Below are positions 18,054-40,000 of a stretch of 40,000 bases of DNA, piece after piece. The notes beneath the pieces were generated by a model. The model was not told where the DNA came from, did not search any database, and worked only from the letters and a program-made list of their open reading frames with translations. Within the stretch, counting starts at the first letter, position 1. Each line of letters starts with the position of its first letter. The stretch spans positions 334,155-374,154 of the forward strand of contig DATAXY010000025.1 of assembly GCA_036272835.1 (NCBI GenBank). Direction: 5' to 3'. The stretch comes from Bryobacteraceae bacterium (GTDB lineage Bacteria; Acidobacteriota; Terriglobia; Bryobacterales; Bryobacteraceae). The position numbers and the translations under genes are program-made.

Positions 18054-18086
18054 GTGATGAAACAGATGAAAAGTTAATCGGGCTGT

Positions 18087-18359
18087 TTACGCCGTCGGTG
18101 CGAGGCTGCGCAACCGCAAGGTTAAGCGGCTTTTGTAACGCGCGGCCGTGTTCTTCTTGATAATGCCCCACTTTGCCGCACGGTCAACTAGAGAGAACGT
18201 TGCCGGAACCACTTTAGCGGCCGCTTCGGCGTCCTTCTGATCCAGCAGACGGCGCATAGTGCGGATCTGGTGACGCAACCGGGTCTTCCGAACCCGGTTG
18301 ATCGCGGTCTTCCGCTCAGCCATGCGGACCCGCTTCAACGATGAAACTGTATTTGCCAT
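18087..18359 (-). CDS. rpsT: 30S ribosomal protein S20
   Basis: 90-aa basic [25 protein letters not shown]... Confidence 0.95.
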
Positions 18360-18559
18360 TAAAAACTGTTTAAACCCTGAATTTCTGAATTGCCCAGCCT
18401 GCGCCCGCCACGGCCAACTTCCTAAAAGGTGTCAACTTTCGGGTGCGGCTCATTTCGAGCTACAATGATAAGGATACCTGAGCGGCCACCGCTATGCAAA
18501 CGCGCGTCCGCCAGTGCCCAAATTTATCTATTACCCTGAAAGTCCGAGTGTAACCCAAC

Positions 18560-19186
18560 TTGGCTCAGCAGGTTTGCTCAGAGGATTTCGCCAAGATTGA
18601 TATGGAACAGGATACAAACGCGTCCGGTGTCGCGATGGAAGACACTAAACCAGTTAACGGGGCCAGTGAGCCCCAGTCAAAACCCGAGCGTTCTCCCGAA
18701 GCCGGTGAAGCGACGGAGACCGCCGGAACCCGCTCCCTAGCCGCTGAATTGGATCGGCTGGCTCGGGAGAAACGCGATCTGCAGGAATTGATGCAGCGAC
18801 GGCAGGCCGAGTTCGAGAATTACAAAAAGCGCGTGGAGCGAGAGCGCGGCGAGCTGTTTGAATTCGCGAGCATGGATACCGCCAAGGCGATGCTGCCTAT
18901 TTTGGACGATTTCGAACGCGCGTTGAAGGTTGAAAGCGCCGATAAAGAATATGCGCGCGGCATGGAACTGATTTATCAACGGCTGTACGAATCCCTTAAG
19001 AAGATCGGGCTGGAGCCGATCTCGACCGAGGGAATGTTATTTGACCCCCATCTGCACCATGCCGTGGACATGGTGGATTCGCCAGATTCGCCGGATCAGA
19101 CAATTCTCGAAGAATACCAGCGCGGCTATAACTTCAAAGGCCGCCTCTTGCGGCCAGCCATGGTGAAAGTGGCAGTTCGCCAGTAA
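18560..19186 (+). CDS. grpE: Nucleotide exchange factor GrpE
   Basis: 208-aa ORF (TTG at 18560; alternative ATG at 18602). GrpE motifs RRQAEFENYKKR, LPILDDFERA and the C-terminal GY.FKGRLLRPAMV. Confidence 0.9.
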   Translation: MAQQVCSEDFAKIDMEQDTNASGVAMEDTKPVNGASEPQSKPERSPEAGEATETAGTRSLAAELDRLAREKRDLQELMQRRQAEFENYKKRVERERGELFEFASMDTAKAMLPILDDFERALKVESADKEYARGMELIYQRLYESLKKIGLEPISTEGMLFDPHLHHAVDMVDSPDSPDQTILEEYQRGYNFKGRLLRPAMVKVAVRQ

Positions 19187-24896: not shown

Positions 24897-25619
24897 ATGA
24901 AAGTAAAAACCACAGTTCAACTCTCACTCGATCTCATTCATTTGCAGGATGCGCTCGAGGCAGCCGATGTCGCGATTCGCGCCGGAGTGGATTGGCTGGA
25001 AGCCGGTACTCCTTTGATCATCGCGGAAGGGCGGCATAGTGTTCGGCAACTGCGCGAGCGTTATCCCGATGTGCCCATTGTGGCCGATCTCAAAGCGATG
25101 GATGGCGGAGGGGGTGAAACCGAAGTTATGGTGAAGGCCGGAGCGAGCATGGTGGTAGTGATGGGACAAGCGCATCCGGAGACCGTGGAAGCGGCAGTGA
25201 AAGCGGGGCATGAATACGGCGCAAAAGTAATGGGCGACAACATGGCGATGCCGGATCCGGTGGCTGGCGCCAAACGGCTGGAAGACCTTGGTTGCGACTA
25301 CATTATTCACCACGTCGGCTATGACATGCGAACATTGCGGAGACAAAGAGGGCAGGATTCGCCGACTCCGCTTGATCGCTTGCGTGAAATTGTCCAAGCC
25401 GTTTCAGTGCCTGTGCAGGCCGTTGGAGGCTTGACGATCCAGCAGGCTATGGATACTCCGAAGTACGGGGCGCCGTTGGTCGTGATCGGGGCGCCATTGG
25501 TGATCGAAGGTCATATGTTTCGCGCAGCGACAGGCGACATGGAGGGAATGCTGCGGATGATCTGCGAAAACGTTCATGCGTACGGAGCGATCGAAGTGGG
25601 TCACGGGGCTGCGGCATGA
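24897..25619 (+). CDS. 3-hexulose-6-phosphate synthase / 3-keto-L-gulonate-6-phosphate decarboxylase family (OMP decarboxylase-like) enzyme
   Basis: ORF track 24777..25619. The likely start is the ATG at 24897, giving MKVKTTVQLSLDL.. (the family begins with LQ.ALD). DWLEAGTPL and VADLKAMD motifs. Confidence 0.7.
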   Translation: MKVKTTVQLSLDLIHLQDALEAADVAIRAGVDWLEAGTPLIIAEGRHSVRQLRERYPDVPIVADLKAMDGGGGETEVMVKAGASMVVVMGQAHPETVEAAVKAGHEYGAKVMGDNMAMPDPVAGAKRLEDLGCDYIIHHVGYDMRTLRRQRGQDSPTPLDRLREIVQAVSVPVQAVGGLTIQQAMDTPKYGAPLVVIGAPLVIEGHMFRAATGDMEGMLRMICENVHAYGAIEVGHGAAA

Positions 25620-26653
25620 ACGCTCTGATGCCCGGCCTGGTCAATTACGCACGTGAACCGCGTTCCGTTGAATTACGCGAGGTACGTGTTCCGGAAATCG
25701 GTGATCACGATGTGTTGTTGCGAGTAGGCGCAGTCAGTATCTGTGGCAGCGACTTGCACCAGTGGCGCGGATCGCATAGCTGGCACGTCAATTATCCGTG
25801 CATTCTGGGACACGAATTTGCGGGTACCGTCTTTCGAGCCGGGCCGCTCGTGTCGAAGTTCAACGAGGGGGATCGCGTTGTTAGCGAAACAGCGGCCGTG
25901 ATCGATGAATCCTCCCCGCTCACGCGAACCGGACTGTATAACTTAGATCCTTCCCGGCGCGGCTTCGGCTATGGTGTCGATGGTGCGATGACAGAGTATG
26001 TGCGCGTACCGGAACGATGCCTGCATCGCATTCCGGAGACCCTGATCTTCCAAAAAGCTGCGCTGACAGAGCCTTGCTGCGTTGCTTACAACGCGGTTTG
26101 CATGAACGGACGAGTGCGCCCGGGCGACCATGTGCTGGTGATGGGGCCCGGACCTATCGGGTTGCTATGCGCGAAGATGGCGAAGCTTAGCGGTGCGGGT
26201 CTGGTAATCGTCGCCGGGTTACCCTGCGATCGGCGACGGCTTGAAGCGGCCCAAGCGGTCGGGGCCGATGTCACACTGGACAGCGGTGTCGTGGAGTATG
26301 TTGCTCAATTGGGCGACAAGCTGGGAGTGGATGTAGTGATCGACGCCTCAGGCGTTTCCGCGACGTTGCAAACAGCCATGCAAGCTGTACGTCCCGCGGG
26401 GCAGATTATAAAGGTCGGTTGGGGACCTCAGCCTATGCAATTCAGTCTCGATCCCCTAGTGCAGAAAAACGTCACCATCTCCGGCAGCTTCTCGCATAAC
26501 TGGCCGGTTTGGGAACGAGTCATTTCAATGATCGTATCCGGCCAGATAGATCTTGACCCGATTATGAGCCGCATCGGTAACTTACCGGAGTGGCTCGAAT
26601 GCTTCGAGAAGATGCACGCGGGCGAATATGTGAAGGCTGTTTTGATTCCCTGA
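25616..26653 (+). CDS. Zinc-dependent alcohol/polyol dehydrogenase (MDR family)
   Basis: 345-aa ORF with a 4-bp overlap with the upstream gene. Contains GSDLH, GHEFAG and a GPGPIGL Rossmann motif. Confidence 0.85.
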   Translation: MNALMPGLVNYAREPRSVELREVRVPEIGDHDVLLRVGAVSICGSDLHQWRGSHSWHVNYPCILGHEFAGTVFRAGPLVSKFNEGDRVVSETAAVIDESSPLTRTGLYNLDPSRRGFGYGVDGAMTEYVRVPERCLHRIPETLIFQKAALTEPCCVAYNAVCMNGRVRPGDHVLVMGPGPIGLLCAKMAKLSGAGLVIVAGLPCDRRRLEAAQAVGADVTLDSGVVEYVAQLGDKLGVDVVIDASGVSATLQTAMQAVRPAGQIIKVGWGPQPMQFSLDPLVQKNVTISGSFSHNWPVWERVISMIVSGQIDLDPIMSRIGNLPEWLECFEKMHAGEYVKAVLIP

Positions 26654-26854
26654 CGCCATCGACTTGGGACATCGGGCTGCCGCCGCAAACAGCGGCCCCT
26701 CGCCGTGACCAGAATCATGTCGGAAGGAAGAAAACATGGGACGGCGTCTGTCTCCTTCTGGGCGTTTCCAAGAATTATTTGATTACATGCTTCCCTATTA
26801 CTTCGACAAGAGAGCCTGCTATCCTCTTATGTAGAAGAAGCAGGGAATACATAC

Positions 26855-27364
26855 ATGGCCGATCGCATCCATTTGCCGCCAGGCACGCTGGATCTCTTGA
26901 TACTGAGGGCCAAGGCGAGGATCTCTAATTCGTTCCGGATCACTTTGCTTACGTTGTTCTTGCTCCTAAATCTGCCTCTCGCGTGCCCCGCTCAGGCCGG
27001 CTCGGCTCCGATCAAAGTCGGAGAGGCCGCCCTTCGTGCAGATGCCAGCGTCTACCCGATCCCGACTTACCCCGCGGACTCTATTCGAGCTCACCATACA
27101 GGCCGTGTTGTGATTGAGGTGGTGGTGGCGCCTATCACGAGCACTAGTCCCCTCGCACGCGTGCAGTCCACCAGAGTCTTAGAAACTCCGGATCGGTCCA
27201 TGGCGCACGCGGTAATCGCGTCTCTTAAGGATGCCCGCTATATGCCTTTGTTCGACGGTGCGGGGAACGTGGTGCAAGCGTCCGGCCGTGTAGTTTGGGA
27301 GTTCCGCATCAACGAACAGGCCAGAAGTGATCGACCCGAATGCAATGCCCAAGCGATCGACTGA
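26855..27364 (+). CDS. Chimeric ORF: PadR-type N-terminus fused to a signal peptide plus TonB-C-terminal-like domain
   Basis: The first ~19 aa, MADRIHLPPGTLDLLILRA, match the PadR N-terminus. They are followed by RITLLTLFLLLNLPLACPAQA/G and by YPIPTYPADSIRAHHTGRVVIEVVV...GRVVWEFRI (TonB_C-like pattern). Confidence 0.45.
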   Translation: MADRIHLPPGTLDLLILRAKARISNSFRITLLTLFLLLNLPLACPAQAGSAPIKVGEAALRADASVYPIPTYPADSIRAHHTGRVVIEVVVAPITSTSPLARVQSTRVLETPDRSMAHAVIASLKDARYMPLFDGAGNVVQASGRVVWEFRINEQARSDRPECNAQAID

Positions 27365-27384
27365 GACCCTGGCTGACGCATTGA

Positions 27385-27576
27385 GCGGGTATCGCGCGTT
27401 TCCGGCCGCTGGAGCTGGACGGTTTGCTGGATTCGGAGTGGCGCCAAACCGAAAACTCGCGCCGGGCGAAATCCTATTCGCTCACTCGGCCCGGATGAAA
27501 GCAGCTTGAAATTGAATCGGCGAACTGGAATCGCAGGGCGTCCGCGATCGCGCGTTTCCTGAAGGTTGAGGCATAA
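27385..27576 (+). pseudogene. PadR-family regulator, C-terminal remnant with in-frame TGA
   Basis: Translation reads ...RPLELDGLLDSEWRQTENSRRAKSYSLTRPG*KQLEIESANWNRRASAIARFLKVEA*. The TGA at 27496..27498 sits where the family has Arg (..GRKQL..). The frame differs from the PadR N-terminus at 26855. Confidence 0.65.
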
Positions 27577-27764
27577 CTAGTGTCGCTTTGGCGCTACCCC
27601 TTATCCCCGAACAGGTCTGTAAGTCCGCCGGACGCGCCTACCCATTCACCGATTTCGAAAATATTGTTTCTTCCTTATTCCGAACAATTTACAAAGAAAT
27701 CGTCGGATTAAAAGTTCGTTTTTGCCTTCTCGCATGCTAGCGTCTAAACCGAAAGCGAGATCCT

Positions 27765-28076
27765 TCACCCATGTCCTCTCCCGCGCAAATTGCCGCCAAT
27801 CAGGCCAATGGGATAGGAGATAGAGAGCTGCAAAACTGCCCTCCCCCAGAGACCCTGTGCGACCGCTTCTTTAATTTTGCCCTCGGCCCCAATCGAAACC
27901 AAACACCCTGCCAATTCGGCCTTCAGAAGCAAAGATCGAGGTTCAGAGGCCTTGAAATCCGCTCTCAACAGAAGGTCGCGCGTTCGCCTTAAAGCTTGTG
28001 AGTATTCCCTAGCATCCAGCAGGGCGGTCACTTCATTTAGGAATTCTCGGTCCTCGGGGCTGATCGCTAACCTCAT
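27765..28076 (-). CDS. Hypothetical helical protein; the ORF reads outward through the left TIR into host DNA
   Basis: The 103-aa ORF begins inside the element (MRLAISPEDREFLNEVTALLDAREYSQALRR..., protein-like and TPR-like). Its last ~30 codons are encoded by the TIR, the TSD and host sequence. No recognised family. Confidence 0.3.
   Translation of the reverse strand: MRLAISPEDREFLNEVTALLDAREYSQALRRTRDLLLRADFKASEPRSLLLKAELAGCLVSIGAEGKIKEAVAQGLWGRAVLQLSISYPIGLIGGNLRGRGHG
27771..27809 (+). pseudogene. 5' fragment (13 codons, MSSPAQIAANQAN) of a host hypothetical gene interrupted by the casposon
   Basis: It joins in frame to 39617.. (AKLSTGPRTEEGRARSSHNAV...) once the element and one TSD copy are removed. 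The rest of track ORF 27771..27992 is read-through into the TIR. Confidence 0.8.
27796..27809. repeat. Target-site duplication, left copy (CCAATCAGGCCAAT; 15 bp if G27810 is included)
   Basis: Identical to 39603..39616. The following G is shared by the TSD and TIR interpretations. Confidence 0.85.
27810..27846. repeat. Left terminal inverted repeat
   Basis: GGGATAGGAGATAGAGAGCTGCAAAACTGCCCTCCCC, compared with the reverse complement of 39566..39602, GGGATAGGAGATAGAGAGCGGCAAAACTGCACCCCCC. The first 19 nt are identical and 34/37 positions match ungapped. Confidence 0.9.
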
Positions 28077-28362
28077 ATTGCTTCGGGTGGCACTAAAGCC
28101 CTTGAAGGTTCTTCTCGATGTTGACAGTTGTACAATTCGGAAAGAGAGTCAATGATCCTGATGGTTGGGACAACGACTCGCAGGTTCACATGCAGTGCAG
28201 GCCTTAGAGTTGGTTGTCGTCGTAAATGTCAAACGCTCCTGCCCCTACGTGTTGATCACGAGTTTCCCGAACAATAAGAAAGTTATCGAGTCCTGGATAA
28301 GGTAGAGATGTTCGTTCGCCTTCGCGATACTCCACTCTCTTCGTTTCGCAGGTAAATGCGTC

Positions 28363-29205
28363 TCAGCGTTCAACCAACAAAACCCCTTCCTTCATCCTAA
28401 AGGATGGATCGATGTTTTCCCTAACGAGATCGCACACGTAATTTGCGGCTCTTGTCATCTCAAGCACGAGGTCGTGAATCAAAGCTACATGGTATTCAAA
28501 TTCCAAGAGAAGCCCGGTATAGACATCATGTTCGTATGGCCGTCCCTTATAGAATGAAGCCGTTATCAGATATTCGTTAGGCCTATCCGCATCGTGCTCA
28601 GAATGCCTTGCGAACACCAGTAGAAGATCATTCACGACGAATCGGAATGACTCAAGGCTGTGACGTATCCGTTCATATCGAGTTGGCCAAACTCTCGATA
28701 ATAGCCAGACGCAGAGGCCTCGAAGGCTTTCTAAAAACTCAATGGCGACGATGGGTGTTGGAGCTAGTAAATATGAGGTATAGCCTAACCAATTATCTAA
28801 TCCGGCTCTCTTAGCCCAATCGTCAATGTATGCCGCCCACCTCTCATCGTCGGTCTGCTTCTTACTATCCCAATTGAGTGAGCTGCGAACCCACCCTTCG
28901 TGACTGCACTTAATTTCCTTCAGCTTTTGAACAGTAAAATAATTCTCCTGATCATCGACCTGCTTATGATGGATATTGCACAGCAAAATCAAATTTTCGT
29001 ACTTATTTCTCTGATCGAGGGGAAGGTCAGAATCGCCACGTGGTCCGTCGAGTTGCTCCGCTACGACGTGGGCCGCTTCTCCGACCAATGATGGATCGTC
29101 AGTCTCTGAGGGATCGATTACGAGGTCACGGCGGCACTCAGCTAGCGAGCAACGAGACGCTGCTCGCCCCCAGAGCATACGATTTGTCCTTACGCTGATT
29201 GACAC
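28363..29205 (-). CDS. HNH endonuclease domain protein with an uncharacterised C-terminal domain
   Basis: 280-aa ORF (GTG at 29205; alternative ATG at 29178). HNH core: C..AEC....GEAAHVVA....GPRGD....NKYENLILLCNIHHKQVD. Confidence 0.75.
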   Translation of the reverse strand: MSISVRTNRMLWGRAASRCSLAECRRDLVIDPSETDDPSLVGEAAHVVAEQLDGPRGDSDLPLDQRNKYENLILLCNIHHKQVDDQENYFTVQKLKEIKCSHEGWVRSSLNWDSKKQTDDERWAAYIDDWAKRAGLDNWLGYTSYLLAPTPIVAIEFLESLRGLCVWLLSRVWPTRYERIRHSLESFRFVVNDLLLVFARHSEHDADRPNEYLITASFYKGRPYEHDVYTGLLLEFEYHVALIHDLVLEMTRAANYVCDLVRENIDPSFRMKEGVLLVER

Positions 29206-29272
29206 TGAGTTTCACCACGCAGGTTTCGAGCGTTCAGCCTCCAACAGCGTCGGATGAGTGCTCGCCATTGAT

Positions 29273-30430
29273 CTAAGTTTCTCGCTTTGCCACGTCCGGT
29301 ACACTGTGGGCAGCATCACTACTCGACTGCTCGCAATTCCACAATTCAACTGAATCTGTATAGTAATATTCGACGTTAATTGCGTTCCCGGAATTCCATT
29401 GCCGAACCGCAGAAATTATTTTTGTGTTTGCTTCGCTACCAGGATCACCGTGTAATCCAACAAACACGCATCGGAATGAGGGCGCGAACATTCGTTTCAT
29501 AACGTGAGCATCTGAAGGCCCAAGGCTGTGACCAAACGTAAAAAGGATACTCCCGCTGCGGGAGAAGGTTGTGAGGCAGTACCTCAAGTACGGATGCCGG
29601 GTAATCTGCTGCATCTTTTCAGCGCTTGTTCCCTCGCAAACAAATAGGGGAGCTCGGCCCTCTCTGATGTTCATCTTGATTTGATCTACAAGTTTGCCAC
29701 CATCAGAGGTGATTTTCGTCAGTATTCCGTTTGACTCGAACAGGTGAAGCCCGCCGTGCAAGAAGTGCACATTCTGTTGGTATTGGCGGGTCTCCCGAAA
29801 AGTGTCCCTCCACTCAAGTCTTCCCTCTAAAAACTCTGACCTTCTGAAGCCGTCGCTCCATCCCTCCCAGCCAGCCGTAGCGAGAGTCCAATATAGAAGC
29901 AGATCGTAGTTCAAGGTGAAAACGTGGCCAAAGTTCTTCAGAAAGGAAAGCGTCGACGCGTAAGCATCATCGGGTATAACGAACACGTGATCGGGATGCC
30001 GTTGGGCAACAGCCCTAACCAGCGCATCTTTTATGAAATCACTATCTACTCGAAACTTCTCGCCGATCTGCAACCCGTGCTCGGCGTGACATGTCGCGAG
30101 CTTGCTTGCGATATCCAGATAGCGGATGACCTCTTCGAAATCTTTGGTACCGAGAATCTCAAACGCTTTTTGGGCTGTTGGAGCTAAGCTGAAATCGGTA
30201 TCGGTGAACAAGGCATTGTAGCTGAAAATGCTCTTATCCCAAGCGATACTGAATCCATTGCCGAGAAGAAGAACACATCTCTCAGGGGGTCCATACTCTT
30301 TGGCCTTCTGAAGAGCCCGGTCAAACGAAACGACCTCAATCACAATAAGACATAATACAGTACGCTTGTTGTTGGGCAAGCCCAAAGCTTCAAAACGCTC
30401 GCCTAATACTTGCCTCCTCAATTCCTCCAA
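29273..30430 (-). CDS. DUF4917-like protein (SIR2-like / DHS-like NAD-binding superfamily candidate)
   Basis: 385-aa ORF with LLLGNGFSIA, FTLNYDLLLYW, VHFLHGGLHLF and FGHSLGPSDAHV, which I recall as the DUF4917/SIR2_2-type motif series. It overlaps the polB stop by 13 bp; the start may be internal. Confidence 0.55.
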   Translation of the reverse strand: MEELRRQVLGERFEALGLPNNKRTVLCLIVIEVVSFDRALQKAKEYGPPERCVLLLGNGFSIAWDKSIFSYNALFTDTDFSLAPTAQKAFEILGTKDFEEVIRYLDIASKLATCHAEHGLQIGEKFRVDSDFIKDALVRAVAQRHPDHVFVIPDDAYASTLSFLKNFGHVFTLNYDLLLYWTLATAGWEGWSDGFRRSEFLEGRLEWRDTFRETRQYQQNVHFLHGGLHLFESNGILTKITSDGGKLVDQIKMNIREGRAPLFVCEGTSAEKMQQITRHPYLRYCLTTFSRSGSILFTFGHSLGPSDAHVMKRMFAPSFRCVFVGLHGDPGSEANTKIISAVRQWNSGNAINVEYYYTDSVELWNCEQSSSDAAHSVPDVAKRET

Positions 30431-33400
30431 GTGTTCGACTCTTCCCCGGTAAACCCATCCGAACTGCTTTGCGGCAGCAGTAACCGCTTAAGCAAATTCT
30501 CATTCGTCGCATGCGGTCTGCTCCTTCCAGCCCTCAGATCGATCAGCGCACGACGAGAAAGCCCGCTCACTCTCACTAGTTCCGAGAGCGCGATCTTCTT
30601 CAGTGCGGGCAAGATCTGCATGGTCCACTCGTCTCGACGTTGATCAACATATTCCGTGTACACATCTCCCTCGTCCCGGACCATGCCAGATTCAACATCT
30701 TCGAGACGATTCGATTCTTTGCCGATGTAGATGATCCTGTCGATTTGGATGTGTCTGCGCTGAAGTAGACCGACCGTCTGTTTGTCGCAGACAATGCCCT
30801 GGGTATCGGCACACTTCGATTCAGGGTGGTACTCGTATTCGGTCAGAATATCGTTGTACGTTTTGACGCGTGCCATTGTGCGTGTTCCGTGCTGGCCTTC
30901 GGTGATGATGCGATACGTGTTGCCGCTGTACTGGTCGATCCATTTTGCCTTGTGCCATTTATTCGGGTCGGTTTCGTAGGGCGCAATCAGATGGAAGTGA
31001 TTTGGATCGGCTTCGGTTGGATGTCCGAAACTATCAACTTGGGCTGTCAGCAAGAAATTGAAGGGCTTGATCTGCGCTCCGTATTGCTTACCGGCGTTGA
31101 AGGTTGAGAATGGCTTCATGACCGCAGGACTGCTGACGGTAACTCGCCCGACTGCTGGCATATGCCCAAAGCTGAGAGCCAATGTTGGCAACCCGAAATG
31201 CTCTCGAATAATGTTGAGCCACACTTGCCCAATCCAGTCGCGGTCTTCATCACCGAGATTCATCGGATTAAGCAGATGTCCAAGGCCGTGCTCTTTCCAT
31301 CCATTGTCTTTGCTGTTGGCGTTCCGGCGCAACAAAACCGGGTCTCCGGTTTCATCCTTTAGAAATAGGGCGTATCGCTTTGCTGAGATCCCAAAACAAT
31401 AGATTTGTCTCTGCTTCTTCGATACCGGATCGAAGTTCACATCCTCGATTTTGAGCACGGAACCGGATACAAGCGTTGCGTCGTATGTGTTCGGTGCTCT
31501 GAACGTTTCGGCGATCTGCCAGACCTGCTCCCATGAGAGAGCCTGAATTGCCGGTTTGCCGTCCTCAGTTGCCAGCGATCCGCCGGGACACGGCACAATC
31601 CCACCGTGTTCAGTGGCGACGATCGCCATCGAGTCCGTGTCTTCCATGGCATACGTTCCGCTAAGGCTCGTGACACTGTGCTCAAGCAGGGCAAGCATGA
31701 GACGCGCGGCCCCCGTGATCAGTGACGCCATCGGCGAAAAGAAGTATTCTCCGGGCTTTTCGACGCGTGCATTTTGGCTTGAGAATGGCTCAGGGTCGAT
31801 TCCGTGGCAGATTGTGGATTTCTCCTTTTCCTGCTCATCGCGATTCATTTCAGCGTAGATCCCGTAACTGGTCGCGTTCGCTAGTACTTTGAGAAATTTG
31901 TTCAGCGGGTTCTCGGACGGTATCTGCTTCCGCTGTTCAATTGCAACCTTGAAGAAATCCTGTTTCGCCGGGTTGATCTCCAATTCTCCGCGCAGCCGAA
32001 TTGGTATCAGCCCAGGCAAAGTACCTTTGGGAACAATACGAAACGCATCCAAAATCGTAGGTATGCGTCCAGTCAGAATTACCGATGCAACGACATCAGG
32101 TAATGATAACCAAATCGCGTGCCGGTCCGGATTTTCTTTGTCTCCGTAAAGATAATTCGATCCGACCTGCCAATCCTTGCTGACATCCGAATATTTCGCT
32201 CTCGTTGGGACAATATCGCCATCCGGGACAATCTTCACGAACGCTGTGAGGAACTTCCAGATTTCCGGCTGAAACAATTTCTCTGGCGTGATCGCTGAGA
32301 GCCAATCGCTGATTTCGGCTGCGCAATTCTCGACAACTTCGATTTTCTTAGCAATGACGAACCGCCACAATCCCATGAGACTGTTAACCGTTGGATACAT
32401 CGACAGAAAATCCACGTACACAACGGGCACAGAAACTTTCCGAATATGAACGCTGGTGCGGCCCCCGAAGAATGCAGATTGCGCATATCCAATAAACTGT
32501 TTCGGAAACTCCGGCTGACGCTTCAGTATCGGTGGAATATTCATCGCCTTGAGATGTGCCTTACCGATCGACGCTGGCGAATATGCCTTGGTCTCCTGAA
32601 GATCGATCGAATGCCAGTCGTATTCTTCGAGAAGCTTGAAAAGCAGCCCCGCAGTTGCGCGAACGTCCTGCCGGTTGTATTCGATGTATTCGTCAGAAAC
32701 AACTCCGTGACCAAGAGCCTTTGATTTTCCTGCCTTAACTCCAAAATCTTTGCAAGCTCGCTCCAAACTGTAGTTCTTGTCGGTGAGTGCAAAAGCGAGT
32801 GTTTTCAAATCCAGGAAATGCCCCCGGAAGATATATCCTTTCTCGGGTTTGCCCGTTGTTGAGCCTTCTGGAATGAGATCCACAAAGTCAGGATTCTTTC
32901 GCGCGGTGAATCCCTTCAATGCGCTCTTGCTGTTGATGTGCTTGATTCCGAGCCTGGGTAGAAACGGATTCCGTTTGTTGGCGTTGGTTTTGTCTTGATA
33001 CGTATCGAGACCCAACGAGAAGCCACCCTCGAACGCACCTCGGGCTGTTGTGGCGTCAGACGCGATCCGGGAGAGGTCAAAGGGCAAATTGAAGCCGACA
33101 ATCAGGCCCCTGGTTTTGTATCCGACTTGATAAAGCTTGCGAATGAATTGGCTACGGGTGAGGAGCAGCAGCTTTCGTGATTGTCTTGCGCCTGTGTCTT
33201 GCGTGTTCTTTGCCACGTATTCTTTGAGAGTCGAAAGTTCGATTCCGGTTATGTCATCACCAAAGAACAGACCTTCTTCGACGCAATACTTGCCGTCGAA
33301 ATATCGATAGCTGCCAAAGATTAGGCTTTGTATCTGGTCAGTTCTGGTTTCCGTATCGAATACAAGAAAGCCGGTTGGACGTTTCCTGGACGCTGGTTTC

Positions 33401-33486
33401 TTCGGCTTCTGCTTATCGTGCTTTTTCGCGTCAGGGTAGACTCGGACCGCGATGTTCAGGGGTGTTGGGTCGGACTGTTTAATCAA
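30418..33486 (-). CDS. polB: Family-B DNA polymerase with 3'-5' exonuclease domain
   Basis: 1022-aa ORF with a TTG start. Exonuclease motifs: ExoI FDTET (D44, E46), ExoII NLPFD (N133-D137), ExoIII YNRQD (Y270-D274). Polymerase motifs: A YVDFLSMYPT (D359), B KVLANATSYG (K533), C YAMEDTDS (D616, D618). Confidence 0.92.
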   Translation of the reverse strand: MIKQSDPTPLNIAVRVYPDAKKHDKQKPKKPASRKRPTGFLVFDTETRTDQIQSLIFGSYRYFDGKYCVEEGLFFGDDITGIELSTLKEYVAKNTQDTGARQSRKLLLLTRSQFIRKLYQVGYKTRGLIVGFNLPFDLSRIASDATTARGAFEGGFSLGLDTYQDKTNANKRNPFLPRLGIKHINSKSALKGFTARKNPDFVDLIPEGSTTGKPEKGYIFRGHFLDLKTLAFALTDKNYSLERACKDFGVKAGKSKALGHGVVSDEYIEYNRQDVRATAGLLFKLLEEYDWHSIDLQETKAYSPASIGKAHLKAMNIPPILKRQPEFPKQFIGYAQSAFFGGRTSVHIRKVSVPVVYVDFLSMYPTVNSLMGLWRFVIAKKIEVVENCAAEISDWLSAITPEKLFQPEIWKFLTAFVKIVPDGDIVPTRAKYSDVSKDWQVGSNYLYGDKENPDRHAIWLSLPDVVASVILTGRIPTILDAFRIVPKGTLPGLIPIRLRGELEINPAKQDFFKVAIEQRKQIPSENPLNKFLKVLANATSYGIYAEMNRDEQEKEKSTICHGIDPEPFSSQNARVEKPGEYFFSPMASLITGAARLMLALLEHSVTSLSGTYAMEDTDSMAIVATEHGGIVPCPGGSLATEDGKPAIQALSWEQVWQIAETFRAPNTYDATLVSGSVLKIEDVNFDPVSKKQRQIYCFGISAKRYALFLKDETGDPVLLRRNANSKDNGWKEHGLGHLLNPMNLGDEDRDWIGQVWLNIIREHFGLPTLALSFGHMPAVGRVTVSSPAVMKPFSTFNAGKQYGAQIKPFNFLLTAQVDSFGHPTEADPNHFHLIAPYETDPNKWHKAKWIDQYSGNTYRIITEGQHGTRTMARVKTYNDILTEYEYHPESKCADTQGIVCDKQTVGLLQRRHIQIDRIIYIGKESNRLEDVESGMVRDEGDVYTEYVDQRRDEWTMQILPALKKIALSELVRVSGLSRRALIDLRAGRSRPHATNENLLKRLLLPQSSSDGFTGEESNTWRN

Positions 33487-34015
33487 CTGAGTCGCCCCCC
33501 TTGCGAAGTTTCTGCCACCATTTCGCCCCCAACATTTCAGTCATCTCCGCATCGAGCTTTTCAAGATTTTCCGGCTGTATCGAGAGAAATCGCTCGATCA
33601 AGTAAGACTGCATGTCAACGAATCCTCGAATACTTGCAGCTGCCCGGCGAAGTGGACTTTGATCGGGATTTTCCAGGGTTCGTGTTGGCCAGTCTTTCTG
33701 TGCTCGTGTCAATTCCGCCCGATGATCGTTGACGGGTATTTCGACTGTTGCCGGATGGTTGTTCTTGCCAGCAACATGATGTTTGTCCATTGTTGTTCGT
33801 CCTTTCTTTTTACGAAGACAAGCTGCGCACATGACCGAGTGTTTTCTCCGTGTCAATGCTTCAGGTCTCCTCTCGCCGCAATGACATGCAGCATTCTCAC
33901 CAACTCTTCTTTGCGCAATTGCTGTTCGCTGCGCTGCTTTGATGGGATCTCGTCCTTGTCGGTTTGAATTCACTTCAGACGCTCCTCGCATACACAGATT
34001 CGAAAGAAAGCACAC
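33479..34015 (-). CDS. Zinc-ribbon / HNH-like small protein, translationally coupled to polB
   Basis: 178-aa ORF (GTG at 34015; the ATG at 33991 is more plausible). Contains CHCGE...CAAC cysteines and DKHHVAGKNNHPATVEIPVNDHRAEL (H-N-H-like spacing). Its stop overlaps the polB TTG start by 8 nt (GTTGATTAA). Confidence 0.4.
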   Translation of the reverse strand: MCFLSNLCMRGASEVNSNRQGRDPIKAAQRTAIAQRRVGENAACHCGERRPEALTRRKHSVMCAACLRKKKGRTTMDKHHVAGKNNHPATVEIPVNDHRAELTRAQKDWPTRTLENPDQSPLRRAAASIRGFVDMQSYLIERFLSIQPENLEKLDAEMTEMLGAKWWQKLRKGGDSVD

Positions 34016-34613
34016 CGGCAGAACCGAGGCGATTCAGTTCCTTTAAGTCGGTAACGAGTCGAATCTCGTTTCCATTGGCGTCCTTCACTTTTTTGCCTCT
34101 AAATTTCTTCAGAGCGGAACTGTCGCCAGTTCTGAGGTACTTCTGAACGGCGTCCATGTATCGGCCTACCGTGCTGCCGTATTTGGAATTGCGAAGTGAA
34201 ACTTCCTGCTGGCCTTCATTTGATGGAATTCGCATCACTCGAAGAAGGCTGTCTGTTTTGGATACCGAATACCGTCCATTCGGCTGCTTCTTGATGGCGC
34301 GGCCAGCCCAACGAACAACGGTTTGAGACTTAACCCCCGCTTCTTTAGCAGCCTTGCTGAGAGACAACCGATCAGTTCGCATCTTGGCGATTGTCCGAAG
34401 GACCTTACTCCAGGTCTCTTGGTCCGCTTCAGGTTTTGCGAAGAAATCGTCCCGAGTTCGGGGCACGGAAGGGGCGGGACGCCGTCCACGGCTTATTTTT
34501 CTCTTGCGCCTCACGACATGAGCATGCAGGTTTGTTTTGGCAACAACAACAAAAAGTTTGTGTGTCGAAATTGCCAGGAACAGGTCGGCAGCAGTGATTG
34601 GCATCGTTGCCAA
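33975..34613 (-). CDS. Hypothetical DNA-binding protein (HTH: LSLSKAAKEAGVKSQTVVRW)
   Basis: 212-aa ORF. The N-terminal ~40 codons look non-coding and contain a palindrome, so the true start is probably further in (a GTG near 34530). The basic RRKRKISRGRR stretch precedes an HTH-like segment. Confidence 0.4.
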   Translation of the reverse strand: MATMPITAADLFLAISTHKLFVVVAKTNLHAHVVRRKRKISRGRRPAPSVPRTRDDFFAKPEADQETWSKVLRTIAKMRTDRLSLSKAAKEAGVKSQTVVRWAGRAIKKQPNGRYSVSKTDSLLRVMRIPSNEGQQEVSLRNSKYGSTVGRYMDAVQKYLRTGDSSALKKFRGKKVKDANGNEIRLVTDLKELNRLGSAGVLSFESVYARSV

Positions 34614-34619
34614 TCACTG
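34592..34619. promoter_or_regulatory. Perfect 12-4-12 palindrome (candidate operator) in the divergent control region of the element
   Basis: CAGTGATTGGCA-TCGT-TGCCAATCACTG. It lies 21 nt upstream of the ATG of ORF 34640 and over the annotated 5' end of ORF 33975..34613. Confidence 0.5.
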
Positions 34620-34639
34620 TTGGACAATAGTTTCTGGCA

Positions 34640-35242
34640 ATGGTTGAAGATGGAATGACAGACGAGACCCTACGAAAGCTAAAGGAGCAATTCCAGGAGC
34701 TAAAGCATACATTCACGAGTCTCAGCGGTTCGTCGGATTACTCCGTAGCCATCCAAGAGCTTCAGGCACTCACAAAGGATATGCCGTTGCTGGCACCGTT
34801 CCTGCGGGACGCAGCAGAACGGATGATGCCTGAAGCGACCCGAGGCAATACCGTACGCCCCGAAATGTTCACTCGTTATTTAGCGGCGATTGACACAGAG
34901 GAAAAGTTTGATCTAGTCCTTGCAAGTATGACGGAATCTGATGGTCAGCAGCTAAGCAGGCACTTAACACAGATGCTAAAGAGCGTTCTTCCCAACATTA
35001 GGGAGGACGGATTAGAAACTTTAAAGAAATTACCCCATCGGCGCGGTGGTGGAAGAAAGAAGGAAGTCGATGATGAACGAGCAGAACGGATTTGCAAAAA
35101 AATCGCAAAGCATATTGAGTCTGGCGTAAGTATTGGCGACGCGCAACGACGGGTTAGCAAGGACGAACGTCTAAGCGAAAGAACCGTTAGAGAAGTCTGG
35201 CAAAACCGAAAGAAAAGACACTTGGTGACTGAGAACAGCTAA
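34640..35242 (+). CDS. Hypothetical protein with C-terminal HTH-like segment
   Basis: 200-aa ORF upstream of cas1 on the same strand. The C-terminus GVSIGDAQRRVSKDERLSERTVREVW resembles a resolvase/Sigma70_r4-type HTH. No family recognised. Confidence 0.45.
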   Translation: MVEDGMTDETLRKLKEQFQELKHTFTSLSGSSDYSVAIQELQALTKDMPLLAPFLRDAAERMMPEATRGNTVRPEMFTRYLAAIDTEEKFDLVLASMTESDGQQLSRHLTQMLKSVLPNIREDGLETLKKLPHRRGGGRKKEVDDERAERICKKIAKHIESGVSIGDAQRRVSKDERLSERTVREVWQNRKKRHLVTENS

Positions 35243-35344
35243 CCAGCGATGACCTGGAAACGTCAACTATTTGAAGGAATATCGGGCCTGCAGCTTGTTC
35301 CACCAAGCGGCAAGCCCTAACCAGCACAGGAGGGTTAAGCTCCC

Positions 35345-36934
35345 ATGAAGGCTACAAAAACCGTAGCGCAGTCGTCGCGCGTCCGCAAGTTAACGCCGCG
35401 ACCGCCAGCAAACATCCACTTCCGACGCTTGTTCGCACCCAGCCATGGTGTCGTGGTTCTTGTCGGATTCGGGATCAAGGTTCGAATCGATCGAGGCCAT
35501 CTAATGCTAGAGGAGGGCATCGGCGACGATCGCCGTGTAGGTCGATTCCCGCGTGTCCATCATGGCCTCAGCCGCGTAGTGGCGATCGGTAACGATGGCG
35601 TAGTCTCGTTGGCAGCGTTGCAGTGGCTTGCCGATCAGAAGATAGCCCTTTCGATGTTGGAACGGGACGGAGTTGTTCTCTGCTCGATAGGTCCCATTGC
35701 GGCCTCAGACACGAGGTTGCGCCGTGCGCAAGCGTGTCTGTCTCATTCACCCTCAGCCGTTTTGATTGTTCGGGAATTGATCCGCCAGAAAATCGCCGGT
35801 CAGGAGAGCGTTGTCCGAAACAAGCTCAACAAAACGAGCGCGGCTCACGTGATCGCCAGATTTCGGAATCAACTCATGACCGCAGACAGCATCGATACCA
35901 TCCGGATGATCGAGGGACATGCAGCGGGTGTTTACTGGACAGCCTGGCAGGATGTCGCGATTCGATTTCCGAAGAGCGATCTTCCGAAAATCCCGGAACA
36001 CTGGACCCAATTTAGTACCCGTCGTTCTCCCATCTCTGGCACGTCGCGGCGATCGCCGAACCCGGTAAACGCTATTCTGAATTACCTCTACACGCTCCTG
36101 GAATCGGAAACACGGCTGGCCATCACAGCGCTCGGACTGGACCCCGGCTTCGGGCTGCTTCACGTCGATCAATCGACCCGTGACAGTCTCGTCTATGACT
36201 TGATGGAACCGATTCGACCCAAGATCGACGCCTACGTTCTCGATTGGATACTACGGACACCCCTCAAGCGCTCATGGTTTTTCGAAGAACGTGATGGTTG
36301 TTGCCGTCTCATGTCCGACATGACCGCTTCTCTAGCAGACACTACGAGAACCTGGGCTGAAGAAGTAGCGCCGATCGTCGAATGGTTTGCGCAGTCGCTT
36401 GCGTCCTCAGCCCAGGAGAGCACTCGGGTTCGGACACCGGCAACACGCCTCACTCAGCGCAGTAGATGCGAAGGACAGGGCGTTAGCGCCCCCGCCGCGA
36501 AAGAACCAAAAACTCAGCCGAACGTTTGCACCATATGCGGAACCGCTGTCTCACCGAACAATCGCTACTGCCATGAGTGCGGCCAGCAGGAATCGGGTAA
36601 GCGGCTTGCCGCAGCCCAAGCCATGAGTCTGGATGCCGCAAGGACACCAGAAGCGCTGGAGAAGAAATCAGCGGCAATGAAGGACCATCGGAACGCTCTC
36701 AGGAATTGGCAACCGTCGGATCTGCCGGAATGGTTAACCGATGAGGTTTACATCGCCAAAATTCAACTCGCCCTTGAGCGTTTTTCTAAAGCGGAAATTG
36801 CCAGAGCCCTCGGAATCTCCAAAGATTACGTCTACGAAATCGTGCGTGGCGATAAGGTGCCACATAAACGGCATTGGGTGAAGTTGGCGGAATTGGTGGG
36901 GATGAGCTCAGAAGAGGGGTCGAAGAGACGGTAA
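35345..36934 (+). CDS. cas1: Cas1 homologue (casposase-type integrase) with C-terminal zinc ribbon and HTH
   Basis: 529-aa ORF with AGGAGG ~10 nt upstream of the ATG. Cas1 motifs: IEGHAAGVYW (E190), NPVNAILNYLYTLLESE, GLDPGFGLLH (H273), YDLMEPIRP (D286/E288). C-terminal CTICG-x10-CHECG and FSKAEIARALGISKDYVYEIVRG. Confidence 0.9.
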   Translation: MKATKTVAQSSRVRKLTPRPPANIHFRRLFAPSHGVVVLVGFGIKVRIDRGHLMLEEGIGDDRRVGRFPRVHHGLSRVVAIGNDGVVSLAALQWLADQKIALSMLERDGVVLCSIGPIAASDTRLRRAQACLSHSPSAVLIVRELIRQKIAGQESVVRNKLNKTSAAHVIARFRNQLMTADSIDTIRMIEGHAAGVYWTAWQDVAIRFPKSDLPKIPEHWTQFSTRRSPISGTSRRSPNPVNAILNYLYTLLESETRLAITALGLDPGFGLLHVDQSTRDSLVYDLMEPIRPKIDAYVLDWILRTPLKRSWFFEERDGCCRLMSDMTASLADTTRTWAEEVAPIVEWFAQSLASSAQESTRVRTPATRLTQRSRCEGQGVSAPAAKEPKTQPNVCTICGTAVSPNNRYCHECGQQESGKRLAAAQAMSLDAARTPEALEKKSAAMKDHRNALRNWQPSDLPEWLTDEVYIAKIQLALERFSKAEIARALGISKDYVYEIVRGDKVPHKRHWVKLAELVGMSSEEGSKRR

Positions 36935-37126
36935 AGCCCGGTAAAGGGGAAACCGGCGATATATAATTCTCGGAATGACTCGGCTCAAGTGGGACAAATC
37001 ACAGCGTCTTGGCTAAATGATTGCGAGAATGATTAGAGGGCCAGTTGACGTTGCGAACCACGGAATTGCGGTGTTCAGCCGGGCGTGTCAGATGTTGGCC
37101 ATCATAGTTGAGCCTGTTTACTTGAA

Positions 37127-37876
37127 GTGGCGAAAGGAGGTCGCAACAATTTGATTGCGGGCGAGAACGATGTGCGTTCGAGGCCGGTTTACTCGATACC
37201 CGAGGCAGCCGGATACCTAGGCATACCCATCAACACCCTGGTTGCTTGGACCGTGGGGCGACGAAAGGCGAATAGTCCCAACTTTTATGTGCCGATACTA
37301 AGCTTCGTAAATCCGGATCTCAGGAAGTTGTCCTTTTATGATCTTGTAGAAGCGCAGATTCTTCGTGTCGCAGTCGAGCGTAAGGTACCCCTGAGGCAAT
37401 TGAAGCGAGGATTGGCATATCTCAGAAGTAAGCATCCGCTTAACCCTAGACCACTGCTCACTTATGATTTTCTAACTGAGGGCAAGTATTTGTTGGTCGG
37501 TGGGATGCTTGGGTCTAAAGAAAAGGACCAGGATGCCCTCGTAAACGCCTCGGTGCACGGGCAACTCGAAATGGCCAGCGTAATTGGAGAACATGTCAGC
37601 CTTCTGCTTAGCGGCATCGATGAATCTCTCAAATTCGTCGCGCGCGACCACGGCTCTAAGTTGCCTCATACGTTGTTTCCGAAAGGCGGACACCACTTGG
37701 TTTCGATCACGCCAGGAGTGGTTTCCGGTCGCCCAGCTATCGAAGGTACACGCATACCAACTAGGATCATTGCTCAGCGATTTCGTGCTGGTGAAGACGC
37801 CAAGACATTAGCGAAGGACTATCGTCTTTCAAAGGAGAAGATTGAGGCGGCGATCCAATACGAAGCAGCCGCATGA
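37127..37876 (+). CDS. VapB45-like antitoxin candidate: N-terminal MerR-like HTH plus C-terminal DUF433 domain
   Basis: 249-aa ORF (GTG at 37127; the TTG at 37151 is better placed, 10 nt after AAGGAGG). YSIPEAAGYLGIPINTLVAW is an HTH. The C-terminal ITPGVVSGRPAIEGTRIPTRIIAQRFRAGEDAKTLAKDY matches the DUF433 pattern. Confidence 0.7.
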   Translation: MAKGGRNNLIAGENDVRSRPVYSIPEAAGYLGIPINTLVAWTVGRRKANSPNFYVPILSFVNPDLRKLSFYDLVEAQILRVAVERKVPLRQLKRGLAYLRSKHPLNPRPLLTYDFLTEGKYLLVGGMLGSKEKDQDALVNASVHGQLEMASVIGEHVSLLLSGIDESLKFVARDHGSKLPHTLFPKGGHHLVSITPGVVSGRPAIEGTRIPTRIIAQRFRAGEDAKTLAKDYRLSKEKIEAAIQYEAAA

Positions 37877-38369
37877 TCCTCACGTTCTTTATCTGGACGA
37901 GGACATAAGCGGTAATAAGTTGGCATCCCTGCTACTGCAAGCACGAATAGCGGTGAAGAACTATGAATCACTGCTTAGGAAAAATAAGAAGGTTCCGGAT
38001 GGTCGTGTGATTCTCACTAGCGCCAAGGCTAACTTTGTACTCGTAACGACAGACAAGAGGATGGAGGCCGAATGGGTCGAGGACATCATCATGAACAGGG
38101 CAAAGGTGCTCCTTTTAACTGATGAGTGCGGTGGCCCGATACATTGGGCGTCAGCACTAATTTGCGGACAGTCAGCCTGGACAAGAGTTCTTCTTGATCA
38201 TCATGGCGAGCCTCTGACCATGAGGGTTAATAGAAACGGCTCCGTTACAAAAGTGACGGGAGAAAAAGAACTCAGGGAGCGTAGCGATGCTCTGTTTCAG
38301 TCAAACGTTGTTCGTGCCAAGCGGAGCGGGGAGACGTTGCCTCGCCGCGTAATGAAAAAACACGCGTGA
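37842..38369 (+). CDS. DUF5615 / PIN-like (VapC45-like) toxin candidate
   Basis: 175-aa ORF overlapping the upstream gene by 35 bp. LYLDEDISGNKLASLL...DGRVILTSAKANFVLVTTDKRM fits the D-E..D..T.D acidic pattern of DUF5615. Confidence 0.55.
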   Translation: MRRRSNTKQPHDPHVLYLDEDISGNKLASLLLQARIAVKNYESLLRKNKKVPDGRVILTSAKANFVLVTTDKRMEAEWVEDIIMNRAKVLLLTDECGGPIHWASALICGQSAWTRVLLDHHGEPLTMRVNRNGSVTKVTGEKELRERSDALFQSNVVRAKRSGETLPRRVMKKHA

Positions 38370-38561
38370 AAGTGTGCACTAGATGAGGTCAACCCCTAAG
38401 CCCATGCGGATTACACCTGAGTTAACTTCACTCTGTAAAAGGCAACCACCAGCCCGAACTGATGAACGCAGCATTCCGTGCTGTACTGAAACTTCCGCAC
38501 GCAGCAGTATGAAGGACGCAGCAAGGCGGGAGCGAGCAAGCGCGAAGAAGAAGTCCGCCTA

Positions 38562-39401
38562 ATGCGAACTATCAGCGAAGTTATCAGTGAAATCCGCTTT
38601 TCGCTTTCTCGTGCCCTCAGCTTGGTTCATAAGAATGAGACGCTTCTAACGTCACAGCTGGAAGAACATGAAGACCAAATAGCCAAGCGAGAAGTTGAGG
38701 CTGAAATCGAATTTTTTGTTAACCAAGCATTTAGGCGCGCTGTTGTAATGGCAGAGGTTAGAGGATTAAAGAGCACCCGTAGCTCCATTGAACGACTTTA
38801 TAAAGAAGCGCAAGGTCAGCTTTCAAGTTTCGAAGACGTTCATGGGGAGATCTATCTTAAGTGGCAGCCACGGCTAGAGGAGTTCTTAGACGCATTACAG
38901 ATTGCGCTAGGCGAGCCGAGTTCGGCACTAATAACGAGAGAGATTATCAGCATACTAAAAGAGACTCAATATAGCATCACGAGACCAATATATTTCGGCA
39001 GAGTTCCCGAGAAGGAAAAAGACGTGCATGATCGGATCGAAGCGATTTTGCGATGTATATTTCCTGACATGAAGCATAAGCCTCACGTTGGCACGTTCTT
39101 GAAAAACTTCGAGCCGGACACTGGCCTTCCTTCGATTAAGACACTCCTGGAATATAAGTTTGTCAAGAGCGACAACGAGGCCCGGACTGTCTTAGATCAG
39201 CTGTTTTCGGATGTCGTTGGTTATTCATCCCCTGAGTGGAAAACACTCATCTGCGTTATCTATGAAACGAAGCGTGTCTTTTCGGAGAAGCAGTGGAACA
39301 CCGAGGTGAAGTCGAGACCGGCTTTTCAGGATTCGGGAGTTGCCGAGAACGTCCAGGTAGTTGTAATCTCTGGAGATTCCCCCCGGGGTTCGAAGGCGTA
39401 A
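38562..39401 (+). CDS. Hypothetical protein with C-terminal PD-(D/E)xK-like nuclease motif
   Basis: 279-aa ORF. The N-terminal half looks like a coiled coil. The C-terminal FEPDTGLPSIKTLLEYKFVK fits D-x(n)-E-x-K of the restriction-endonuclease-like fold. No family recognised. Confidence 0.4.
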   Translation: MRTISEVISEIRFSLSRALSLVHKNETLLTSQLEEHEDQIAKREVEAEIEFFVNQAFRRAVVMAEVRGLKSTRSSIERLYKEAQGQLSSFEDVHGEIYLKWQPRLEEFLDALQIALGEPSSALITREIISILKETQYSITRPIYFGRVPEKEKDVHDRIEAILRCIFPDMKHKPHVGTFLKNFEPDTGLPSIKTLLEYKFVKSDNEARTVLDQLFSDVVGYSSPEWKTLICVIYETKRVFSEKQWNTEVKSRPAFQDSGVAENVQVVVISGDSPRGSKA

Positions 39402-39565
39402 CCCAAACGATCTCTTGTGCATCGAGTAGCGGCATCGAAACACCGCAAGACGTTTGCCTGGCGCGTTTTTACGATCACCGCAAATCTGATTCGCCAATTC
39501 TCGGATTAACAATTTTGAGCACCTGGCGTTCTAGGTCTTTTTAACTAGCCCACTCGATTCGGATT

Positions 39566-39602
39566 GGGGGGTGCAGTTTTGCCGCTCTCTATCTCCTATC
39601 CC
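39566..39602. repeat. Right terminal inverted repeat
   Basis: Its reverse complement matches 27810..27846 at 34/37 positions, with the first 19 nt identical. Confidence 0.9.
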
Positions 39603-39616
39603 CCAATCAGGCCAAT
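39603..39616. repeat. Target-site duplication, right copy (CCAATCAGGCCAAT)
   Basis: Identical to 27796..27809. Confidence 0.85.
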
Positions 39617-40000
39617 GCCAAACTATCTACGGGTCCTCGGACCGAAGAGGGCCGAGCCAGATCCTCTCACAACGCCGTCCGCACGGCGCTGACCGGCCGC
39701 ACCGTTCTGCTGCCCACCGATGATGTCGAGGAATACAAGAAGCACGTCGCCCGCTTCGAAGCCGAGTTCAAACCCGTCACCGAGCGCGAAAAAGAACTCA
39801 CCCAGAACATCGCCGAGACCCAGTGGCGCATCGATCGGATTTTCTCCCTCGAACAAGGCATCTACGCCGTCGGCCGCGTCGAATTCGCCGATCTCTTCCA
39901 AAACCAGGATGAGGCCGTCCGCGCCGCCATGATCGACGTGAAAACTCTGACCACCTATCAGCGCCAGCTCAACAATCTCTCGCTTCAAGAGGAACGTCTT
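39603..40000 (+). pseudogene. 3' portion of the interrupted host hypothetical gene (continues beyond the window)
   Basis: The frame from 39605 reads NQAN AKLSTGPRTEEGRARSSHNAVRTALTGRTVLLPTDDVEEYKKHVARFEAEF... and is open to the window end. It has no start codon of its own. Track ORF 39623..39988 (-) is its antisense shadow. Confidence 0.8.

Follow-up and report, generated by a model that had tools for sequence, protein, structure and literature searches.

Structure of the locus

The window, by which we mean the whole 40,000-nt stretch of the Bryobacteraceae bacterium assembly that was analyzed, carries an 11,793-bp Cas1/PolB casposon bounded by 37-nt inverted repeats and an exact 14-bp duplication, CCAATCAGGCCAAT (Table 1). 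In a repeat search, the two terminal inverted repeat (TIR) arms were 92% complementary over their 37 nt, and the 14-bp direct repeat lay immediately outside them. The left junction reads ATG TCC TCT CCC GCG CAA ATT GCC G, followed by CCAATCAGGCCAAT and then by the casposon tip, GGGATAGGAGATAGAGAG. At the right junction, the element ends in CTCTCTATCTCCTATCCC, followed by CCAATCAGGCCAAT and GCC AAA CTA TCT ACG GGT. If the shared G is counted, the target-site duplication (TSD) is 15 bp instead of 14.

Table 1. Coordinates of the interrupted gene, the casposon and casposase-derived modules near intact members of the target family
Feature	Position	Strand	Basis or remark
Conserved upstream region (promoter / 5' leader) of target gene	27643..27770	+	Nucleotide similarity among paralogues
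13-codon stub MSSPAQIAANQAN of interrupted gene	27771..27809	+	Translation, paralogue alignment
Left 14-bp TSD CCAATCAGGCCAAT	27796..27809	.	Sequence, repeat search
Casposon, 11,793 bp	27810..39602	.	TIRs, TSD, gene content
Left TIR, tip GGGATAGGAGATAGAGAG	27810..27846	+	Repeat search
Putative family-B DNA polymerase (PolB-like) gene, 1,022 aa	30418..33486	-	Pfam DNA_pol_B_2 just below cut-off; 57-60% identity to relatives
Casposase gene (Cas1 + Zn ribbon + HTH), 529 aa	35345..36934	+	Pfam Cas_Cas1, HTH_31/HTH_3 and zinc-ribbon matches
Right TIR	39566..39602	-	Repeat search
Right 14-bp TSD CCAATCAGGCCAAT	39603..39616	.	Sequence, repeat search
Start-less gene body, codons 14-141, ends at contig end	39617..40000	+	Open frame, paralogue alignment
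Casposase/remnant modules	G008:C11 8778-9756, 17525-18731, 37103-38314 (L132-L133)	Opposite to family gene	Three times
Casposase/remnant module	G047:C9 ~396651-398050 (L139)	Opposite to family gene	
Casposase/remnant module	G066:C24 ~25560-27980 (L137)	Opposite to family gene	
Casposase/remnant module	Own genome C57:23388-23740	Opposite to family gene	

Residues 41-325 of the 529-aa casposase match Pfam Cas_Cas1 (E 3.5e-45), and its C-terminus has zinc-ribbon and helix-turn-helix (HTH) matches. The putative polymerase of 1,022 aa scores 25.0 bits against Pfam DNA_pol_B_2, for which the cut-off is 25.8 (E 1.1e-05), and the proteins to which it is 57-60% identical are the polymerase-position ORFs of related Cas1 elements. 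The casposon also encodes an HNH nuclease (28363-29205; matched by HNH_2 and PADLOC HNH effector models), DUF4917 and DUF433 proteins and a DpnII/MboI-like nuclease. Some of this cargo (28363-30430 and 38562-39401) matches candidate anti-phage defence models, namely PADLOC PDC-S21 for the DUF4917 protein (E 3.9e-96), SAVED-HNH / CBASS-type effector endonuclease models for the HNH protein (E down to 1e-32), and the REase part of 'Aga' models for the nuclease at the right end. Neither Cas2 nor any further Cas family was detected in the ten casposon ORFs scanned, a set that leaves out the eleventh (37842-38369), and the repeat listing for 27500-40000 contains no CRISPR array. The element has hallmarks by which casposons are recognized: a Cas1 integrase, TIRs with a TSD of ~14-15 bp, and a cas1 gene outside a CRISPR-Cas locus. 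[quoted passage not shown] The casposon is single-copy in the assembly, its listed ORFs are open, and its relatives all come from metagenome-assembled genomes (MAGs) of Acidobacteriota.

Outside the element, positions 27771-27809 translate to MSSPAQIAANQAN, 13 codons from an ATG, and positions 39617-40000 form an open 128-aa frame beginning AKLSTGPRTEEG. When the element and one copy of the repeat are deleted, the 13-codon stub fuses in frame with the start-less ORF to give 141 residues. In the frame of the gene body there is no ATG, GTG or TTG from the upstream stop to residue ~105 of 128 (codon ~118 of the whole gene), where the first in-frame ATG occurs. The window ends where contig C25 (374,154 bp) ends, so the 3' truncation of the gene body is an assembly effect and not biology. 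Over residues 1-141, the rejoined protein is 98.6% identical to an intact paralogue of the same genome at C35:75200, 94.3% to one at C44:53131, 93.6% to one at C38:41040 (P0002; 225 aa in full length) and 91.5% to one at C65:101458. Since these uninterrupted paralogues align from residue 1 to 141, the reconstruction of the empty site is validated.

Two claims of the preliminary description of this DNA bear on these junctions. It had joined stub and body as halves of a single gene, and the intact paralogues do have the contiguous N-terminus that this demands. It had also called a gene-inactivating insertion at codon 13 atypical among casposons, a judgement we share because described casposons spare their target gene and the body is here left without a start.

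Contigs of three soil sequencing runs were compared with positions 27000-40000, and no empty-site allele of this locus was found among them. One candidate, a 181-nt contig joining 27795 to 39603, has 10 mismatches in 119 nt and was set aside as probably another paralogue. The left flank beyond the dispersed unit described below has no second copy in the assembly.

The target family and its sites in the same genome

From its N-terminal pattern, the preliminary description had assigned the interrupted gene to a recurrent, multi-copy family of acidobacterial genomes. The assignment was borne out by 37-47 matches within the genome, by matches in each of 24 congeners and by more than 1,538 homologues. 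With the C-terminal part as query the family was found at 37 places in this genome, and with a full-length paralogue at 47; the copy number is quoted here as about 35-47. All 24 congeneric genomes carry it (4-42 matches each), and genomes from other families of the same order have few or no matches each. The more than 1,538 homologues, from a large protein collection, are all annotated as 'hypothetical', and none has a Pfam domain; their hosts are Bryobacteraceae, Acidobacteriaceae and a few Verrucomicrobiota. An HMM built from 22 paralogues recovers the same family in relatives.

Members are ~210-285 aa long and share the N-terminal motif Q-I-A-A-N-x-A-N-A-x-L-S-T-G-P-x-T-x-x-G-K. Searches of Pfam, NCBIfam, PHROGs and PADLOC and a profile search of PDB returned no credible match (at most marginal, E >= 0.05), the ESM Atlas returned only unnamed acidobacterial clusters, and Foldseek returned nothing at E <= 0.001 against PDB and BFVD. 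An AlphaFold model of a family protein predicts an all-helical bundle or coiled coil with a mean pLDDT of 82.8 (~90 from residue 45), although residues 1-45, the most conserved part, reach only ~50.

DNA similarity among paralogues extends ~128 nt upstream of the ATG (in long forms up to ~260 nt), or 130-300 nt when measured from codon 14, and does not continue past the stop codon. What is dispersed is therefore a unit of ~0.8-1 kb, made up of the ORF and its own upstream region. The neighbors of ten sampled copies are ordinary metabolic genes (e.g., PQQ dehydrogenases, a histidine kinase, phosphoglucomutase), with no integrase or transposase beside any of the ten, and neither terminal repeats nor target duplications were seen around the unit. 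The ~130 nt upstream of family genes (27643-27770 in the window, and ~15 paralogues) are strongly conserved, with the blocks GTCACCGATTT, GAAAATATT, TTTAC, GTTCGTTTTCGCC and TCTCGCATGCTAGCGTTTAAGCCGAAAGCGAGA in this order, and a short inverted repeat, TCTCGC/GCGAGA, directly precedes the start codon. A search of this region for structured RNA gave no Rfam match and no RNAalifold consensus fold. Solo copies of the upstream region, with no gene attached, occur at C1:126156-126270.

A further peculiarity of the family is a 39-42-nt in-frame insert, KDEAAFLSEPKIQQVT, which has ~95% DNA identity across 12 paralogues that are otherwise 50-75% alike. Of its 13 occurrences in this genome, 12 are in family paralogues (e.g., C43:26613-26666, C62:157128-157180 and C6:83935-83981), and it occupies different protein positions in homologues from other genomes (P0023, P0038, P0094). 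Two 31-nt matches lie outside the family, at C62:199637 and C49:23891. The insert may have arisen as a very small mobile insertion or through gene conversion.

The exact 14-mer CCAATCAGGCCAAT is present three times in 6.58 Mb, where chance would give ~0.05 occurrences, and each time a casposon tip adjoins it. Besides the two copies in the window there is one on contig C43, at a second paralogue that lacks its first 13 codons and has only 69-77% protein identity and ~72% DNA identity. The C43 gene body is preceded by the identical 14-mer and by 18-20 nt of the same casposon tip (14-mer and tip 32/32 identical); the tip is then broken by a multi-copy repeat, at which the contig ends. Identical ends beside diverged genes point to a second, independent insertion at C43. 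The repeat, which starts CGTGAGCTTTCGGCAGAGCTGCGTAAGC, is probably an IS: it lies at C43:26761-26899 and at the ends of C48, C49 and C72, with 140 nt identical at the four contig ends, its body is absent from the assembly, and a diverged copy is found at C3:3632. No second full casposon is assembled in this genome, where cas1-related sequence elsewhere consists of CRISPR-like genes on C80 and C30 and a fragment of ~50 aa (~120-150 nt) on C57.

Empty paralogues carry synonymous variants of the 14-mer that differ from it at one to several positions. The duplicated segment always spans base 2 of the Ala codon preceding the first Asn through the end of the second Asn codon, and the consensus of occupied sites is C-N-A-A-Y-C-R-N4-A-A-Y. 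The preliminary description had expected many equivalent landing sites if the family proved to be multi-copy; 26/31 paralogue sites of this genome fit the degenerate consensus, and the exact 14-mer is confined to occupied sites. It had also suggested checking for another paralogue with an insertion at the homologous site. C43 is one, and seven metagenome contigs and two further genomes of the genus likewise have family genes with such an insertion.

Related casposons and their targets

Related elements occupy the same codons in about ten further family genes, which come from soil metagenomes or from other genomes; both orientations are represented, and some insertions are tandem. These codons have been used repeatedly and independently in other paralogues and species. 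The casposases of three relatives with the same target are 71% (G008), 67% (L061) and 61% (G066) identical to that of the window. In each of the three a stub of the family gene runs directly into a casposon tip, namely MSTPAQIAANQAN on G008:C11 (tip at 18731), MSTEAQLAANQQN on G066:C24 and MSTPAQIAANQKN on metagenome contig L061. The PolB arm adjoins the stub in the window and in G008, and the Cas1 arm does so in L061 and G066. Contig G008:C11 has three more junctions of a tip with the 14-mer: at a short gene-body fragment (6078), at a different tip (6371) and at the same tip (12082-12113).

An 18-nt tip search of metagenome contigs found 75 that share GGGATAGGAGATAGAGAG. Eight of the ends that have AAAACTGCCCT, exactly or nearly, as their inner repeat abut the target family, either at the stub (L074, L108, L116(-), L061) or at the 14-mer and gene body (L079, L104, L113, L116(+)), the latter recognizable as A-x-x-S-[ST]-G-P, e.g., of the A-Q-H-S-T-G-P type. 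Five end types on six contigs (L065, L071/L091, L075, L078, L111) share the tip and the AAAACTGCCCT-type motif, exactly or with one base off, but have other flanks, so the target preference is strong and not absolute. Several metagenome junctions are tandems in which two tips are separated by 14 nt. Contig L116 (Ga0209112_10010830) contains, at 104-2373, a miniature derivative of a casposon, 2.27 kb long, which has both tips but of the genes only a short piece of cas1; both of its ends lie within a family gene at the same codons, and its two 14-mers differ at 3 positions.

Two relatives have odd junctions. In G008 and G066, one canonical junction of stub, 14-mer and TIR is present, and the other side has no TIR. 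That side instead carries a direct copy of the left flank, 226 bp in G066 and 1.2 kb in G008, followed by a whole family gene. The copies are at local positions 9937-10162 and 15206-15431 of G066:C24 (L137), and at 17525-18731 and 37103-38314 of G008:C11. A simple insertion model leaves these one-sided junctions unexplained. In four genomes, moreover, a casposase gene or a remnant of its C-terminal zinc ribbon (ZnR) and HTH lies 230-600 bp upstream of an intact family start on the opposite strand (Table 1). Between two remnant ORFs of 158 aa in G008 there are 12 synonymous and 7 non-synonymous differences, which gives a dN/dS of ~0.17 over only 19 changes. The modules may be debris of repeated insertions, products of aberrant integration or repair, or a retained inhibitor.

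More distant acidobacterial casposons, with casposases 42-47% identical to that of the window, have the same type of tip (GGGATAG/GGGGTAG; L035, L036, L037, L043 and many of L050-L124) and a 14-bp TSD, but they target intergenic promoter-like sites, whereas the window element targets the coding sequence of one family. Their perfect 14-bp TSDs begin with GTCAA, the complement of a -35-like TTGAC, and TACACT or TATACT follows ~17 nt downstream of the TTGAC. One promoter-like site, ACTGCCGGTTTGAC, recurs in 11 metagenome contigs, and several contigs of these distant relatives contain tandem junctions of tip, 14 nt and tip. An automatic search for TIRs with TSDs succeeded in only 4/19 related loci, and less strict criteria, applied to G078 and nine further loci, yielded none. 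ARAGORN found no tRNA genes near four of the distant relatives.

Interpretation and comparison with known systems

We consider it very probable that the casposon split one member of a multi-copy gene family in a canonical, recent, casposase-mediated insertion. In such an insertion, the casposase, a Cas1 that carries zinc ribbon and HTH at its C-terminus, would hold both GGGATAGGAGATAGAGAG tips and recognize the DNA that encodes the family's N-terminal motif, Q-I-A-A-N-x-A-N-A-x-x-S-T-G-P. The two element ends would be joined 14 (or 15) bp apart, and gap repair would duplicate the 14 bp that begin at base 2 of the Ala-9 codon and include the whole Asn-13 codon. The promoter and the 13-codon stub would remain on one side and the body, lacking a promoter and a start codon, on the other, so that the hit copy is inactivated. 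From the sequences of the sites we infer that the casposase itself reads the target and that one flank carries a determinant. The loss of one family copy, which we assume to be harmless, should cost little because some 35-47 copies exist in the genome, and the family would serve as a set of redundant, conserved landing sites. Insertion would regenerate the site on both sides, making tandem insertions possible.

Dozens of family copies per genome could also produce recurrence if insertion were essentially random and reflected family abundance, or if an occupied copy had been duplicated. This is scarcely credible: the share of the family in the genome is well below 1%, and yet, in more than 10 genes with different flanks and from different species, insertion has used one and the same pair of phosphodiester bonds, one following base 1 of the Ala-9 codon and one following Asn-13. 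Duplication is at odds with C43, where the gene has only ~72% DNA identity, yet the 14-mer and tip are identical at every position. The locus could alternatively be a chimera, its stub and body derived from two paralogues through recombination between casposon copies, so that no empty site ever existed here. Many near-identical family members, at least two casposon-occupied paralogues in this genome and the rearranged junctions of relatives provide the means for such an event. We nevertheless regard it as very unlikely, as the TSD copies are identical at 14/14 positions, whereas unoccupied paralogues vary at one to several of them, and as stub (13/13 residues) and body (126/128) share the same closest paralogue, C35. 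A single-copy casposon with open ORFs also speaks against it.

A functional tie between family and casposon, with the family gene carried beside cas1 or a ZnR-HTH remnant acting as inhibitor or protector of the site, would imply co-evolution and not just targeting. The position of casposases or their remnants upstream of intact family starts in four genomes, and the low dN/dS of the remnant ORFs in G008, are consistent with such a tie. We think it improbable, however, in that casposases were found in only 5/121 genomes of the genus compared with the family in 24/24, which makes the family independent of casposons, and nothing casposon-like lies upstream of the stub in the window. The dN/dS is based on 19 changes and could be explained by gene conversion from active copies, and the modules themselves could simply be what repeated insertion at a hot spot has left behind. 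It likewise seems unlikely that casposon and family interact beyond targeting in the sense that ZnR-HTH remnants, which appear to evolve under constraint, have been domesticated as site shields or regulators, and that the odd junctions reflect an undescribed pathway of integration or repair. If this were true, truncated casposases might inhibit transposition or confer a kind of target immunity.

Casposon-mediated splitting of a redundant gene copy is of interest since the CRISPR adaptation machinery has been proposed to descend from casposons, and the target choice of Cas1 integrases is central to that question of ancestry. To our knowledge, all characterized casposases recognize a gene end, that of a tRNA gene or of aEF-2, and leave the gene undamaged. 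The element found here fits the definition of casposons; what sets it apart is a target that lies inside an ORF, is split by the insertion and exists in many copies. Judged from the sites, the window lineage would recognize a short coding motif with dozens of occurrences in each genome, and promoter boxes appear to be what its distant relatives recognize. For the study of DNA recognition by Cas1-type enzymes, this provides a natural series of related casposases that differ in specificity, along with many variants of the target, tandem arrays and miniature elements. The analysis also draws attention to a large, wholly uncharacterized family of dispersed single-gene units in soil Acidobacteriota.

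Among other mobile elements, R1/R2 retrotransposons sit in rDNA units, some IS target REP sequences or other IS, and Tn7 uses attTn7. The casposon of the window resembles all of these in using a conserved, reliably present site at low cost to the host, although it transposes by an unrelated chemistry. R2, which disrupts one of many rRNA units, is a closer analogy than Tn7, which leaves its target gene intact.

Bacterial casposons of family 3 include NitAL212-C1 and AceAut-C1 (Krupovic et al. 2014, PMC4046053). The window element is like them in its bacterial host, its putative PolB and its HNH nuclease, its TIRs and a TSD whose length is close to the median of 15 bp, and like NitAL212-C1 in particular in having Cas1 fused to a zinc-binding domain and HTH (PMC4046053). 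This likeness, drawn from their description, ends at the target, which here comprises codons 9-13 within an ORF that belongs to a multi-copy family and is inactivated by the hit, and at the acidobacterial lineage. No description of acidobacterial casposons was found in the literature searched. The target type of families 1 and 2, the 3' end of an aEF-2 or tRNA gene that stays unaltered, also differs from an insertion after codon 13 of a protein ORF.

As summarized in a 2023 review (PMC9939771), published casposases are site-specific and use the duplicated segment together with a flanking (upstream) determinant (PMC5137440, PMC6614799, PMC6977970); the review also describes tandem insertion of casposons at a reconstituted site. 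The family 2 casposons AciBoo-C1 and MetMaz-C1 (PMC5137440, PMC6614799, PMC6977970, PMC10359463) are reported to share with the window element a sequence-specific target and a 14-15-bp TSD, and the duplicated segment likewise regenerates the target, giving rise to tandem insertions and solo-end relics. Their insertion sites, however, are the 3' ends of tRNA-Pro or tRNA-Leu genes, which stay intact, whereas the window element splits its gene. Where family 2 has one or a few sites per genome, the window lineage has dozens of potential sites in each genome and inserts in both orientations.
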